Assembly (NCBI GenBank): GCA_945786985.1
Contig: CALZGC010000003.1
Coordinates: 1-58,611 of the forward strand
Reading direction: 5' to 3'
Length of the DNA: 58,611 nt
DNA from: an uncultured Nitrospirota bacterium
GTDB lineage: Bacteria; CG2-30-53-67
The notes below the pieces were generated by a model. That model ran no database searches, was not told the DNA's origin, and worked only from the letters and a program-made list of their open reading frames with translations. Positions 23,401 to 49,126 of the stretch are shown one piece after another. Made by a program: the position numbers and the translations under genes. How positions within the stretch are numbered: position 1 is the first letter of the stretch; each line of letters opens with the position of its first letter.

Positions 23401-23836
23401 TCGCAGGACGCAAAAAAAGCTTCGGGTTCCTGAGGGTGAGTGAATCGACACGTCCCCTGAGCAGCCCGTCGAGGCTGAGGCCCACTGCCACAAAGGGAAG
23501 CACCATCCGTGGGGCACCGTCTTCGGCGTCCCCGACCATGAGATCCCTGATGACGAGGACGTGCGGGTCCTGAAGTTCCAGCGAACCGATCCTGACGTCC
23601 GTCTCGAAACGGCGGGCCAGTTCCCGGTGAAGCAGGTCAAGAAAATGAGGGCTTTTCAAAAACCAGAGGACGAAACCAAGAAGTGACAGAACGAGGAAGA
23701 GGGAGAGGGCCGCACCCACCAGACACGTCCGCTTCGGACCGGATCGACCTTTCCCTGAGCTTTCCAACCCACTCACCCCGTTCGCCCGGATATTGCATGA
23801 GTGATCATCATGAGAGGCCCCAGAGATACTGGACAC
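20435..23836 (-). CDS. YdbH-like AsmA-family giant envelope protein (N-terminal TM anchor, long beta-rich body, YdbH-type C-terminal domain)
   Basis: 1133-aa ORF with a single N-terminal TM helix (LVGAALSLFLVLSLLGFVLWFL). The C-terminus (ISGILEGYVKDLVITNGQPESFLVHLGT...FKEYRYANLGFSGRLRNDNFTLRG...EYLV) is of the YdbH type. It lies directly upstream of a DUF1318 gene, as in ydbH-ynbE-ydbL. The start is uncertain: the longest ORF starts at GTG 23836 inside repeat copy A, and GTG 23776 and TTG 23767 are alternatives. Confidence 0.8.
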   Translation of the reverse strand: MSSISGASHDDHSCNIRANGVSGLESSGKGRSGPKRTCLVGAALSLFLVLSLLGFVLWFLKSPHFLDLLHRELARRFETDVRIGSLELQDPHVLVIRDLMVGDAEDGAPRMVLPFVAVGLSLDGLLRGRVDSLTLRNPKLFLRPARAGGRPPGEKSLSLPVNLGRLAVEDGELVLHLAERTLRGGFSFDAHMDEKNGSAALLFSGNVGAVGVFESSAPETVLAGAAGKELVRSVFLEGTLTSVAPNRVAVDARVRTDGLSLQELQQDLLAPLGFAGQAISLTGILEGNTTLAGTSPGELQWHSDIRVDGFALSSAALSVDLNGTPLHLVFKGTYTEETDRLHCERLEARLGDDPPWSLRGNIEAAASGDPGFDLRLEGTGFPLSALKGLLAGTAVQWLQALEMSGQGAVRLGLSGTAASPRVAGAVHLTGERFQSAGMLLKPFEIELPFACGSGECRVRDGRAHGKTVMLDFENGRGLRHRLLNARLKVPHLRYAQGVLRAPETELRADRIAISRARRTYLSESGVALVGDVGIDLDKNTMALRRYRLRSDSLGELSGDVDLKLDETVTVQSTVRHRGLNLKTLAARFPKGFTAAGEYALEGTAGIRGVWTIKIPRQAPTEVQGKIDVTFRDGGFASPDGTRVAAGIRARASGRFDFSLPMKKTAFALDTRVSNLEMLWGPFYGDFSKRPLSLKAEGAYQTETDRLDLSHLSVALADVGSLLFSGSLRNLRHNPAYDARVRLVGLSNGDAYAFFVRETFQESFPLLATLNLDGRTDLDLTLTGTRQRLGVQGEVRVADTNLRSAEAGIGLEGLQLRLPVDIAADETLAANAPQRTGSLRFANLAWKALQTGPVELFPFIRQDVLDFRGDVAVPLFGGRAVFKEIAYRDLFSPERNLRLSADIEDFDLSQMSVALGLPRFQGTLSGTIPTVTFAGRRLRTTGAIVLTLFGGEVTIEGISVNNVFSPVASMKSTVALREIDLGRLTDTFEFGHISGILEGYVKDLVITNGQPESFLVHLGTVKRKGVGQRISVEALEKISILGSGTSPSIFGRGVYRLFKEYRYANLGFSGRLRNDNFTLRGIVREGGLEYLVRGGVLPPKVNVINYTQEISFREMVKRLKRIQLAGEAEKSIRE

Positions 23837-23994
23837 GCCATGGGCAAGACGCAGAAAATTTACCGGCTGAAGACATATTGAAGTCAGAAAATTTTCTGTA
23901 ACGCCGAATGTGGCAGGCTATCCGTCTTCGCAGAATGCTACGCCGTGACAAGTCCGGCCTCGCAATAGATTGACTCATGCAATATCCGGGCTAG
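23781..23994 (-). repeat. Full-length copy A of a nested-palindromic MITE/REP-like element (about 214 bp)
   Basis: A perfect 19-nt terminal inverted repeat GCCCGGATATTGCATGAGT occurs at 23784-23802 and, as its complement, at 23973-23991. An inner palindrome CAGAAAATTTTCTG lies at 23885-23898. The whole copy aligns end to end, in reverse orientation, with copy C at 48947-49126. Confidence 0.8.
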
Positions 23995-24154
23995 ATCAGA
24001 AACCGCGCCGCAGCACCCCAGGGGTGTGGAGAGCGGAAGACACGGTTCATCCATCCGGTCTTCTGCGGGGACGACCCCCTGTGTTTGTAAATCGGATCGG
24101 AGCAAGGCGGAAGGACCGCAGGGGGACGCCACACACGAACGGCCCCGCGCCGCG

Positions 24155-24622
24155 TCAGAAGATGGCTGCCAGACGATCATATGATTTGCGCAGCCGAGTC
24201 GCTGTGGTCAGGAGCATTCCCTTGAGGAGCTGGACACCGAGGGTCGGGTGCGCCTCGATGAGCTCGTCGAATTTCTCTTTGCGCAGAAGCACCAGCGACA
24301 CATCCTCCAGCGCTTTTGCCGAGGTCGCTGCCGGGCGGCCATCCAGGATGGACAATTCCCCGGCAATGGCCCCTTGGCTGTAAACGCCGACCACCACTTC
24401 TTTCCCTTTGAACTCGGTCTGCTTCTTGATTTCCACACGCCCCGTCATGATGAAGAAGACACAGCCCGACGGCTCCCCTTCCTGCCACAGAACATCGCCC
24501 GCGGAGGCCTGCGCACATTCAAAATAGCCGCCGATCTTAGTCAGATCCTCCTCCGTGAAAAAACGGAAAGAGCTGAGCTCATTTTTCATCCGGACGCAGA
24601 CCGCCGGTGTCACCGATTTCAC
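24155..24622 (-). CDS. Stand-alone cyclic-nucleotide-binding (CAP/CNB) domain protein, last gene of the mla operon
   Basis: The CNB beta-barrel reads GDVLWQEGEPSGCVFFIMTGRVEI...GELSILDGRPAATSAKA, and there is no HTH domain. The GTG start at 24622 overlaps the mlaC stop (GTGA) and is preceded by GGAGGGGG. A paralog lies at 42508-42972. Confidence 0.85.
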   Translation of the reverse strand: MKSVTPAVCVRMKNELSSFRFFTEEDLTKIGGYFECAQASAGDVLWQEGEPSGCVFFIMTGRVEIKKQTEFKGKEVVVGVYSQGAIAGELSILDGRPAATSAKALEDVSLVLLRKEKFDELIEAHPTLGVQLLKGMLLTTATRLRKSYDRLAAIF

Positions 24623-32324: not shown

Positions 32325-32450
32325 ACTCAGCACAAAATATGCTTCGGCGGAAAACATATTGAGATATTCGGATGTGGCGAATGCTTCTGTAACCCAGCGT
32401 CCGGCAGGTGATCAGACTCCGGAATAGATTCCCGCCTCCCATGGCCGGAC
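32325..32450 (-). repeat. Degenerate internal fragment (copy E) of the palindromic element family
   Basis: GCACAAAATATGCTTCGGCGGAAAACATATTGA...CGGATGTGGC...GAATGCTT...GTCCGGC...AATAGATT is collinear with copy A segments GCAGAAAATTTACCGGCTGAAGACATATTGA...CGAATGTGGC...GAATGCTA...GTCCGGC...AATAGATT. The termini are not recognisable. Confidence 0.35.
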
Positions 32451-39170: not shown

Positions 39171-39236
39171 ACGGGGACTGGGCAAGAAACCGCCGGGTGC
39201 GCCTATTGCGAGGTTCCTGCAGATTGGTCCGGACGC

Positions 39237-39338
39237 TCAGCCGAATATTGCATGAGTCAATCTACTAAGGGCCGCCTGTGGCGCCTCCCGTGCATCTGGG
39301 GCCTCTCATGACGATCATTCATGCCATACCCGGCCTAG
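39237..39338 (+). repeat. Short (about 100 bp) internally deleted copy B of the palindromic element
   Basis: The left arm CCGAATATTGCATGAGTCAATCTACTAAGGGCC is joined directly to the right arm GCCTGTGGCGCCTC...GGGGCCTCTCATGACGATCATTCATGCCATACCCGGCCTAG. Both arms align with copies A and C. The terminal CTAG (39335-39338) contains the stop codon of the CBS gene. Confidence 0.7.
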
Positions 39339-42391: not shown

Positions 42392-42454
42392 CGTTACCGC
42401 TTGATAAGCCAGGGTGATGAATTCTTTCGCGCGAGTTCCGGGCGAGTTCAAGGC

Positions 42455-42511
42455 AGTATACATGGGCATCTGCGCCGTTGCAGCAGGATACCCATGCAAT
42501 ATACGGTCTAG
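42455..42511 (+). repeat. Partial copy D (right-arm terminus) of the palindromic element
   Basis: CATCTGCGCCGTTGCAGCAGGATACCCATGCAATATACGGTCTAG aligns with the copy C right end (TTCTGCGCCTTGCC...GATCACCCATGCAATATCCGCGCTAG). The terminal CTAG (42508-42511) contains the stop codon of the cNMP-domain gene. Confidence 0.55.
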
Positions 42512-42972
42512 AAAATGCGGGCGATGCGGTCGTAGGATTTCCGCAGACGGGTCGTCGTCGTCACGAAGATGTTCTTCAGGAGTTTCAGCCCCAGCATGGG
42601 ATGGCTGGAGACGAGCCGTTCGAAATCCCGACTGTGCAGAAGCAGGAGATCGGAGGCCTCCATGGCCTCTGCCGTCACCGATCGCGGGTTGCCCGTCAGC
42701 AGACAGAGCTCTCCCACCACCGAGCCGCCGTCGTAGAATCCGACGATGACATATTTCCCCTCGAATTCCGTTCTCTTCTTGATGCAGATCCTTCCCGACA
42801 GGATAAACGCTGCATAGTTGTCATCATTCCCCTCATGCCAGAGGGTCTCCCCGGAAGGAATCTGCCGGGTGTCGCAGAAGCCGAGAAAATTCTGAAGCTC
42901 ATCGTCCGTGAGGGATTCGAAGAAGCGAAAGGCTCCTCTCATCCGGGCACCGAGGGTATCGATGGTTTCCAT
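42508..42972 (-). CDS. Stand-alone cyclic-nucleotide-binding (CNB) domain protein, paralog of 24155-24622
   Basis: ORF trimmed to the ATG at 42972, with GGAGG about 10 nt upstream. The CNB motifs read GETLWHEGNDDNYAAFILSGRICI ... GELCLLTGNPRSVTAEA. Its C-terminal tail TRLRKSYDRIARIF is shared with the paralog. Confidence 0.85.
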   Translation of the reverse strand: METIDTLGARMRGAFRFFESLTDDELQNFLGFCDTRQIPSGETLWHEGNDDNYAAFILSGRICIKKRTEFEGKYVIVGFYDGGSVVGELCLLTGNPRSVTAEAMEASDLLLLHSRDFERLVSSHPMLGLKLLKNIFVTTTTRLRKSYDRIARIF

Positions 42973-43130
42973 CGCAGGCGGCCTCCGCAAAAGCGCTCTC
43001 TTTCAAGGGCATGAGACGCGTTACAGTTAACATACTAACTCTCTGGCCGTTGCGCAAGGGAAAAGAACGACCGGCGGGCACCCATACGGACAGGAGTTCT
43101 GACAGCGCAGGCGTCAGGATCCAAAAACGT

Positions 43131-43170
43131 GCCCGGATATGGCATGCGTGATCGTCATGCCAGACCCGGG
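43131..43170 (-). repeat. Solo terminal arm (copy F) of the palindromic element
   Basis: GCCCGGATATGGCATGCGTGATCGTCATGCCAGACCCGGG aligns with the copy A left end GCCCGGATATTGCATGAGTGATCATCATGAGAGGCCCCAG. Similarity is lost after about 40 nt. Confidence 0.5.
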
Positions 43171-43211
43171 CCGGGCGAATAAAACACAGGAATCAGGCCT
43201 GCCGTCCGTAA

Positions 43212-48600: not shown

Positions 48601-48946
48601 CGGGCACTTCCATTTCCAGCCGCTCCAGCATCAGCGCGTCCCCTTCGCAGGCCTCCACGTTCAGGGAGCCGCACTCGGGGCATTTGAACCGGACAGTGTC
48701 GGTCGCACTCGTCTGCAAGCAGTCCCGGCAGTTGAGCTCAAGCGGGCTCATCTCAATGACCAGCTCAGCGATCTCCGCCACGGTCCGGTCCTTGAACGTG
48801 TCGAAAGCCGTTTTGAGCAAATGGGGAACGACGCCGGCCAGAGGCCCCACCCGCAGCACGACCCGGGTGACCGTCTGTGCGTCCTGCCGGGCGGCGTGTT
48901 CTTCGATGGTGTTCATCAGGCTCTGGACGATAGAGAATTCGTGCAT
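48587..48946 (-). CDS. hypA: Hydrogenase nickel-insertion protein HypA
   Basis: The MHEFSIVQSL N-terminus (Ni site) is present, with zinc site CRDC...CPECG. It overlaps hypF by 14 nt. No SD is recognisable, because repeat copy C begins immediately upstream of the ATG. Confidence 0.9.
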   Translation of the reverse strand: MHEFSIVQSLMNTIEEHAARQDAQTVTRVVLRVGPLAGVVPHLLKTAFDTFKDRTVAEIAELVIEMSPLELNCRDCLQTSATDTVRFKCPECGSLNVEACEGDALMLERLEMEVPDGPA

Positions 48947-49126
48947 CTTAGCCCGTATATTGCATGAGTTAATCTATTACGAGGCCGGATAGTCTGCCAC
49001 ATGCGGCGTTACAGAAAATTCTCTGACTTCGAAATATTGCAATATGTCTTCAGCCACAAAATTTTCTGCGCCTTGCCTGTGGCGCCTCTACGACCATGAC
49101 GATCACCCATGCAATATCCGCGCTAG
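48947..49126 (+). repeat. Full-length copy C (about 180 bp) of the palindromic element, filling the hypE-hypA intergenic space exactly
   Basis: The termini are TTAGCCCGTATATTGCATGAGT (left) and ACCCATGCAATATCCGCGCTAG (right; its complement is CTAGCGCGGATATTGCATGGGT). The internal palindrome is ACAGAAAATT...AAATTTTCTG. It is collinear with the reverse complement of copy A apart from three indels. Confidence 0.8.

Follow-up and report, generated by a model that had tools for sequence, protein, structure and literature searches.

The 58,611-nt contig CALZGC010000003.1 of an uncultured Nitrospirota bacterium (GenBank assembly GCA_945786985.1; the whole stretch is called here "the window") carries, at the 5' end of a large minus-strand open reading frame (ORF), a long palindromic repeat (copy A) with relatives at five other loci. 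What kind of element is this repeat, and what could have spread it? A preliminary description of the window, made from the letters alone, spoke of a non-autonomous mobile element resembling either a miniature inverted-repeat transposable element (MITE) or a repetitive extragenic palindromic (REP) sequence, with termini of no recognised insertion sequence (IS) family. We find that the termini belong to the IS1380 family, and we hold with high confidence that the repeat is a non-autonomous, non-coding MITE, moved in trans by an IS1380-family transposase of the DDE type. The mobile, non-autonomous character is borne out by four lines of evidence, on which the MITE reading is based: dispersal, coincident ends with target duplications, empty orthologous sites, and a parent that has the same termini and encodes a transposase. 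The "REP-like" part of the earlier label is not, since the duplications and the DDE-type termini speak against it.

Dispersal and common ends of the repeat

Copy A possesses a perfect 19-nt terminal inverted repeat (TIR), as had been described, with GCCCGGATATTGCATGAGT at 23784-23802 and its exact complement at 23973-23991. Allowing up to three mismatches, this 19-mer occurs seven times in the window, against 0.02 occurrences expected from shuffled sequences. A search for further copies, proposed in the preliminary description, revealed dispersal both genome-wide and metagenome-wide. When one genome per species (185,579 species) was scanned with a degenerate 22-nt pattern for a single arm, 37 of the 39 exact matches fell into two metagenome-assembled genomes (MAGs) of uncultured Nitrospirota, CAYUBU01 and CAMYMF01, and the other two equal the number expected by chance. 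In JGI and other metagenomes, a 21-nt terminus pattern identified at least 120 loci, dozens of them in the single assembly CAJICE01. From the window, genome and metagenome loci (the metagenome loci being those among the matches listed) we compiled a catalogue of 311 arms and 117 arm pairs. The pairs comprise 107 short elements (60-374 bp, mode 177 bp), two intermediate ones (465 and 593 bp; L057 and L148), and eight of about 1.6 kb, which are the parent ISs described below. All 311 arms align on one first base, i.e. the ends coincide between copies, as the earlier description had demanded of a mobile element.

The parent element

The search for a longer, transposase-bearing element with the same termini, likewise proposed earlier, was successful. 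Among the long multi-copy repeats of the first 39 loci no IS-sized element was found, and the parent appeared only after the metagenome scan, at eight metagenome loci in which opposed arms lie 1573-1622 bp apart and enclose one ORF of 437-446 aa. These ISs, about 1.58 kb long (1573-1636 bp), have a single ORF and termini of the form CC(C/T)GG. The ORF product matches the NCBIfam equivalog model NF033539, "IS1380 family transposase", with 422-428 bits (cutoff 180; E~1e-126 to 1e-128), and Pfam family PF13701 with 560-575 bits (E <=1e-168). MITE and IS share the 18-bp termini CCCGGATATTGCATGAGT, and their YTAR flanks (Y, pyrimidine; R, purine) are likewise the same. The IS clade is very abundant: at E<=1e-100 its proteins form at least 7,950 clusters, most of them located on contigs of IS length; its transposases are mutually 57-70% identical, and the termini are nonetheless kept. 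One metagenome contains an IS of this type (L154) together with at least 15 MITE copies.

The similarity to the parent is limited to the ends. The interior of the MITE shows no similarity to any IS interior, and an origin of the MITE from the IS by internal deletion is thereby ruled out. We also found at least seven further short families that combine the same IS1380-type termini with unrelated interiors (L090, L108, L114:1375-1544, L127/L130, L142, L145, L146, L106), which argues that the termini have been captured repeatedly. From the termini, the duplications, the empty sites and the parent ISs, all of which are observed, we infer that a transposase of the IS1380 clade moves the MITE. We thus regard the repeats as a true MITE family that is mobilised by IS1380-family elements or, at the very least, has its ends in common with them.

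Elements of the IS1380 family, as known from ISfinder, measure approximately 1.55-2 kb and have a single ORF, short inverted repeats ending with CC, and direct repeats of 4-5 bp. The parents found here resemble members such as IS1247, ISEcp1 and ISPme1 in the single DDE transposase, the short TIRs starting with CC and the short duplication, whereas the element in the window lacks a transposase and has only the 18-bp termini in common with them. For IS1247 (1672 bp) inverted repeats of 16/13 bp and a 5-bp direct repeat have been reported (PMC3281130), unlike the 4-bp duplication at YTAR found here. In the searchable literature we came across no earlier case of a MITE derived from IS1380, although this does not prove that none exists.

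Target site and duplication

The dinucleotide TA precedes 269 of the 311 arms, and YTA precedes 257 (TA background, 2.5%). The outer Y and the R next to the element covary, with CTAG (115), TTAA (69), TTAG (46) and CTAA (25) as the observed combinations. In 56 of the 117 pairs the flanking 4-mers are identical in direct orientation, and the non-palindromic identical pairs, CTAA/CTAA (seven) and TTAG/TTAG (five), far exceed the number predicted by a model of 2-bp duplication with independent flanks. A related IS in a long-contig assembly is represented by four identical and evidently recent copies, all with perfect 4-bp repeats at their flanks (CTAG/CTAG in three copies, CTAA/CTAA in one). Because of these 4-mer statistics and the identical IS copies, we consider the duplication to comprise 4 bp (YTAR) and the element to start at CCCGG. 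The outermost base of the "19-nt TIR" is thus the inner base of the target duplication, and the element proper has 18-bp termini and the limits given in Table 1. The target-site duplications that the preliminary description had suggested looking for are therefore present, as 4-bp YTAR repeats. For copy A, the flanking 4-mers are TTCG (23781-23784), which is decayed, on the left and CTAG (23991-23994) on the right.

The same flanks could be explained by a MITE of the IS630/Tc1-mariner type, similar to the Correia elements, with duplication of TA alone and with termini that start with R (GCCCGG or ACCCGG). Our own initial reading was of this kind, and the 4-mer statistics together with the identical IS copies led us to drop it. 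TA is indeed the best-conserved part of the flanks, and the TTAG...CTAA flanks of one IS at two sites (L058:1997-3580, L159:832-2415) are what duplication of TA within a TTAA target would produce; the empty site of copy C (see below) is compatible with either model. However, the only transposase found between such termini is of the IS1380 type, and in copies with mixed ends the outer bases are exactly complementary in 7/11 and 5/7 cases, compared to approximately 1.8 and 1.5 expected. Moreover, in the four otherwise identical IS copies the supposed first base of the element changes with the flank (CTAA/CTAA), for which only a 4-bp duplication provides a simple explanation. We therefore regard an IS630-type origin as very unlikely.

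Empty orthologous sites

Comparison with orthologous empty sites, which had also been recommended, gave clean results for copies C and A. In the syntenic CAMYMF01 locus L041, whose genes flanking copy C are about 80-87% identical to those of the window at the nucleotide level, the gap between hypE and hypA amounts to 4 nt (...ATCTGCTAATACCATG...), while the window reads ...ATCTG-CTAG-[171 bp]-CTAA-GATG.... Copy A is missing from two relatives, L167 (85% protein identity) and L168 (71%), the former having CCGT where the window has CTAG-[206 bp]-CGAA. Copies A and C are thereby demonstrated to be clean, lineage-specific insertions. L041 and L042 lack copies B and D in the matching intergenic regions, and both copies start precisely where the TA of a stop codon lies. 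Divergence of the far-side flanks leaves no readable clean junction at these two sites, and what is seen there is absence; the simplest reading is again that of lineage-specific insertions.

These results also bear on a very different explanation, according to which the repeat would be a REP element or bacterial interspersed mosaic element (BIME) spread by a REP-associated tyrosine transposase (RAYT, IS200/IS605-like), or else a non-mobile conserved regulatory palindrome. REP elements are linked to RAYTs and are not known to have target duplications or DDE-type termini. The elements studied here do resemble REP/BIME sequences in being extragenic, palindromic and modular, with hairpin modules recombined into mosaics; their interior shows covariation, and three genomes share copy E at one site (see below for both). 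They differ in that their termini are defined and agree exactly with those of a DDE IS, and in showing target duplications and clean empty sites; in addition, both orientations are equally frequent beside genes, and Rfam at gathering thresholds yields no match in the whole window. The search for a RAYT was confined to the large ORFs of the window near the copies. Taken together, we consider a REP-type or purely regulatory origin extremely improbable.

Several observations weigh against a MITE driven by an IS1380-type transposase. Neither the window nor the approximately 300 kb sampled from the MITE-bearing MAGs yielded a transposase of the IS clade, and MITE and parent co-occur at the level of one metagenome. 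In about half of the MITE copies the flanking 4-mers differ by at least one mismatch, which we attribute to age. The IS at L058 and L159 has no 4-bp direct repeat; its flanks agree better with duplication of the 2-bp TA within a TTAA target than with a 4-bp duplication, and it stands as an exception. Finally, a search for RNA sequencing runs covering the locus returned only two sediment DNA metagenomes, each with 5% of words.

Proposed mechanism of spread

According to the model we favour, the transposase would recognise the 18-bp termini, inverted at both ends, and integration would occur at YTAR tetranucleotides, preferably CTAG and TTAA, these 4 bp being duplicated. Since YTAR is scarce and found mostly in intergenic regions or within TAA/TAG stop codons, the surviving copies would accumulate at gene ends. 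The interior, which is not derived from the IS, is a long imperfect palindrome, in which pairing is kept by compensatory substitutions. Its central modules are shed or swapped, leading to copies of 41 to 374 bp, which would follow most simply from the known instability of long palindromes.

The proposed target preference has a counterpart in eukaryotes. Precise excision is a hallmark of piggyBac elements, which duplicate 4 bp at a tetranucleotide with a central TA, as do the elements found here; the piggyBac target is TTAA, and that of our elements CTAG, TTAA, CTAA or TTAG. Unlike piggyBac, the latter are prokaryotic, use the broader target YTAR and have a transposase of different architecture. 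IS1380 transposases have been described as a prokaryotic outgroup or relatives of piggyBac (PMC10813416, PMC10140906). Our results document a target preference (YTAR, with 4-bp duplication) for an IS1380 clade, which is reminiscent of the piggyBac TTAA.

Among bacterial MITEs, such as the Correia elements of Neisseria, ERIC/IRU, RUP and MITEAba12, our family is typical in being small, non-coding and multi-copy, in having TIRs and target duplications, in its intergenic location in both orientations, and in its long hairpins and size variants generated by internal deletion. It is atypical in having a parent of the IS1380 family with an interior not related to its own, in that the termini enclose several unrelated interiors, and in a deletion series that reaches down to a 41-nt palindrome. 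An abundant, hitherto unlabelled repeat of uncultured groundwater and sediment Nitrospirota thereby gains a mechanism and a parent family.

Modular architecture of the family

The copies of family 1, to which copy A belongs, always have two different arms: in the type-1 arm the terminus is followed by GATCGTCATGAG, which forms a small hairpin, and in the type-2 arm by AAATCTATTRCGAGG. In copy A this hairpin (CATGAGTGATCATCATG in the left arm) and the inner palindrome CAGAAAATTTTCTG (23885-23898) were already recognised in the preliminary description, and both are present. Roughly symmetric central deletions generate size classes of 134, 89/90 and 66 bp, down to about 41 nt (copy E and L007). 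In the 155-198-bp classes one inner module is replaced by a perfect 28-nt palindrome. Copy A has an extra 31-nt module at approximately 23925-23956 (in the minus-strand reading, TCTTCGCAGAATGCTACGCCGTGACAAGTCCG), which is present also in L002 and L031. In two genomes (L010:310-670, L031:1468-1841) we found an unrelated palindromic element of about 185 bp, with the ends GTGGCTCTGTTCGCAAATATGG ... CAGTATTTGCGAATAGGGCCAC, nested exactly at the dyad of family 1. Neither this nested element nor the 28-nt palindromic module was found when they were looked for in the window.

One copy (L003:4939-5162) contains a scaffold gap in the form of an N-run, and at many of the MITE and IS loci a contig ends. 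The repeats break short-read assemblies, and knowledge of the family should be of benefit there, as copies coincide with gaps and contig breaks.

The copies in the window

BLAST and profile searches confirmed all five loci that had been listed besides copy A (Table 1), with some changes of interpretation. The full-length copy in opposite orientation (48947-49126 in the preliminary description) and the centrally deleted one (39237-39338; a real short copy of 95 bp plus flanks) stand as described, and the degenerate one (32325-32450) was recovered as a partial copy. The locus at 42455-42511 is also real; it is not a simple arm of the same element, as had been proposed, and represents a truncated terminal piece of a second MITE family; this family has the same termini, and its full-length form (about 178 bp) is present in L125 and L158. 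Similarly, the supposed terminal arm at 43131-43170 is real, and we found it to be a complete palindrome of about 41 nt. In agreement with the earlier statement that the element is non-autonomous for want of a transposase in the window, tblastn revealed no transposase encoded there.

Table 1. Copies of the MITE families in the window and candidate start codons of the adjacent large gene
Feature	Position	Strand	Description
Copy A	23785..23990	+	206-bp family-1 MITE; type-1 arm left, type-2 arm right
Degenerate copy	32330..32448	+	Partial family-1 copy, profile positions 57-175, E=4e-14; type-1 arm lacking, terminus decayed
Copy B	39240..39334	-	95-bp central-deletion derivative of family 1
Copy D	42448..42507	-	~60-nt truncated end of second MITE family, same termini
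Copy E	43131..43171	+	~41-nt minimal palindrome: terminus - GTGATCG loop - terminus complement; E~6e-5
Copy C	48952..49122	-	171-bp family-1 MITE, orientation opposite to A; profile E=9e-56
Candidate starts of 1,100-aa AsmA-like membrane protein	23767..23778	-	GTG 23776, TTG 23767; 6-18 nt downstream of copy A end

Position relative to genes

A conspicuous feature of the copies is their association with stop codons. For 65 of 267 arms (24%) the duplicated TAR serves as the stop codon of an ORF that is open for at least 80 codons, compared to 16-17 (6%) in control frames. In the window, copy C is flanked by TTAG (48948-48951) and CTAG (49123-49126), the CTA at 49123-49125 being the TAG stop codon of the minus-strand hypE, with the ATG of hypA at 48946-48944. 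The CTAG beside copy B (39335-39338) is the source of the TAG stop codon of a minus-strand gene for a CBS-domain protein, the far flank, CTCA (39236-39239), being decayed, and the CTAG beside copy D (42508-42511) is the source of that of a gene for a cyclic nucleotide monophosphate (cNMP)-binding protein at 42508-42990.

The base composition of the window predicts 579 YTAR sites, and 76 are observed, i.e. the motif is 7.6-fold depleted (genome GC content, 60%), with only 11 CTAG sites left outside the elements. Of the 42 non-disruptive YTAR sites in the window, i.e. those outside the coding sequence proper, nine (21%) overlap stop codons. The association can thus be explained by target availability combined with purifying selection. 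A special targeting of stop codons was considered and found needless, as the availability of targets suffices. Since the 4-bp duplication contains TAR, the upstream gene keeps its stop codon. Scarce targets and a duplication that regenerates the stop codon offer a simple account of MITEs located exactly on stop codons. There is no orientation bias with respect to the upstream genes (24:24).

At copy A, the longest frame of the large minus-strand ORF, starting from GTG 23836, extends into the element. The preliminary description offered two explanations: either the start codon is wrong, with GTG 23776 or TTG 23767 as replacements, or the element contributes the first codons of the gene. Orthologues without the element share a conserved 5' block (GGGGTGAGTGGGTTGGAAAGC...) that begins just outside the insertion, so that the extension to GTG 23836 is spurious and the element gives no codons; this agrees with the first explanation and rules out the second. 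The start codon in the database, GTG 23719 (1094-aa protein), is ACG in L168, while GTG 23776 and TTG 23767 are conserved (the latter as GTG in L168), and the annotated protein probably lacks 16-19 residues at its N-terminus. Knowledge of the element is thus of use for annotation, since gene callers extended the ORF into it or chose a non-conserved start.

The gene belongs to the string mlaEFD-mlaA-mlaC-cNMP-binding-AsmA-like. Its earlier label, "ydbH-like", is loosely supported by distant homologues (29-34% identity) that carry AsmA (PF05170) or DUF748 (PF05359) domains; the protein itself has no Pfam match. The region between the cNMP-binding gene and copy A (23995-24154) is conserved like a coding sequence across the window, L167 and L168, and it may hold a promoter, a leader or a small ORF for the AsmA-like gene.

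The 4-nt gap between hypE and hypA in the sister genome suggests translational coupling. In the window, hypA is intact despite the 171-bp hairpin-forming insert after hypE (48944-49125). The hypE-hypA and AsmA-like/mla insertions constitute natural experiments on the tolerance of hairpins of -70 to -80 kcal/mol within operons.

The interior palindrome and its possible roles

Copies A and C have very stable predicted folds (-81.2 kcal/mol, z -5.8, for the RNA of copy A; -70.1 kcal/mol, z -6.6, for copy C). Both lie between co-directional genes; if they are transcribed there, the transcript would contain hairpins of -70 to -81 kcal/mol, with conceivable effects on RNA stability, termination or translational coupling. 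Promoter and terminator scans of the regions of copies A and E detected nothing convincing within the elements.

In order to analyse covariation, we used 42 unique copies of about 177 bp. The terminal helix is nearly invariant and exhibits no double-sided changes, as would be expected for a protein-binding site. In the interior helices, double-sided changes occur at 11 pairs; shuffled data gave 4.9+-1.3, and in none of 500 shuffles was the observed value reached. Of the cells, 95.7% are paired, compared to 29-45% when the partners are slid. This is evidence that compensatory changes maintain the interior palindrome; given the common descent of the copies, it is not proof of selection, and templated correction within quasi-palindromes could also bring about paired changes without any selection. 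The preliminary description had set dispersal like that of mobile elements against covariation of a conserved structured RNA or regulatory site. Dispersal, with transposon-like ends, is found, and the interior also covaries, so that this is not an either/or.

When the strand is read from the type-1 to the type-2 arm, mismatches of the G.U type outnumber those of the A.C type by 31:5 in the terminal helix (80 unique copies) and by 54:27 in the interior, and the unpaired columns show no matching mutational bias. Counted by columns, the contrast in the terminal helix is only 12:4. The G.U excess hints that the fold of one strand matters, and we treat it as a lead.

Copy E is of particular interest in this respect. 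Located between the gene for a cytochrome c3 and the cNMP-binding gene, it is found at orthologous positions in the window, L041 and L042, i.e. in three genomes, with paired changes in the stem, and is therefore older than the divergence of these lineages. It folds at -31 kcal/mol and is followed in the window by UUUUU, features that make it the best candidate for exaptation. The U-run is missing in L042, i.e. it is not conserved, and the terminator scan did not flag copy E.

It may be asked whether, in addition to its spread as a MITE, the interior hairpin has been selected as a single-stranded nucleic acid of one strand, with some copies (notably E) exapted as terminators or stabilisers. Compensatory changes in excess of controls, the G.U bias confined to paired columns and the history of copy E are consistent with this idea, which we consider possible and rather doubtful: descent among the copies inflates the counts, as the 12:4 ratio illustrates, templated correction could produce the paired changes, the copies show no orientation bias with respect to upstream genes, and copy E is neither recognised as a terminator nor followed by a conserved U-run. 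A more specific version, in which one particular strand, read from the type-1 to the type-2 arm, has to fold (as RNA or as single-stranded DNA) for propagation or for a role in the host, and in which old minimal copies such as E are exapted regulatory hairpins, strikes us as unlikely. If true, an IS1380 transposase would read the ends of such a MITE as double-stranded DNA, and selection would act on the body as a single-stranded structure.

Finally, two small paralogous proteins with a cNMP-binding domain, encoded at 24155-24622 and 42508-42990, each adjoin a MITE copy, which is probably a coincidence.

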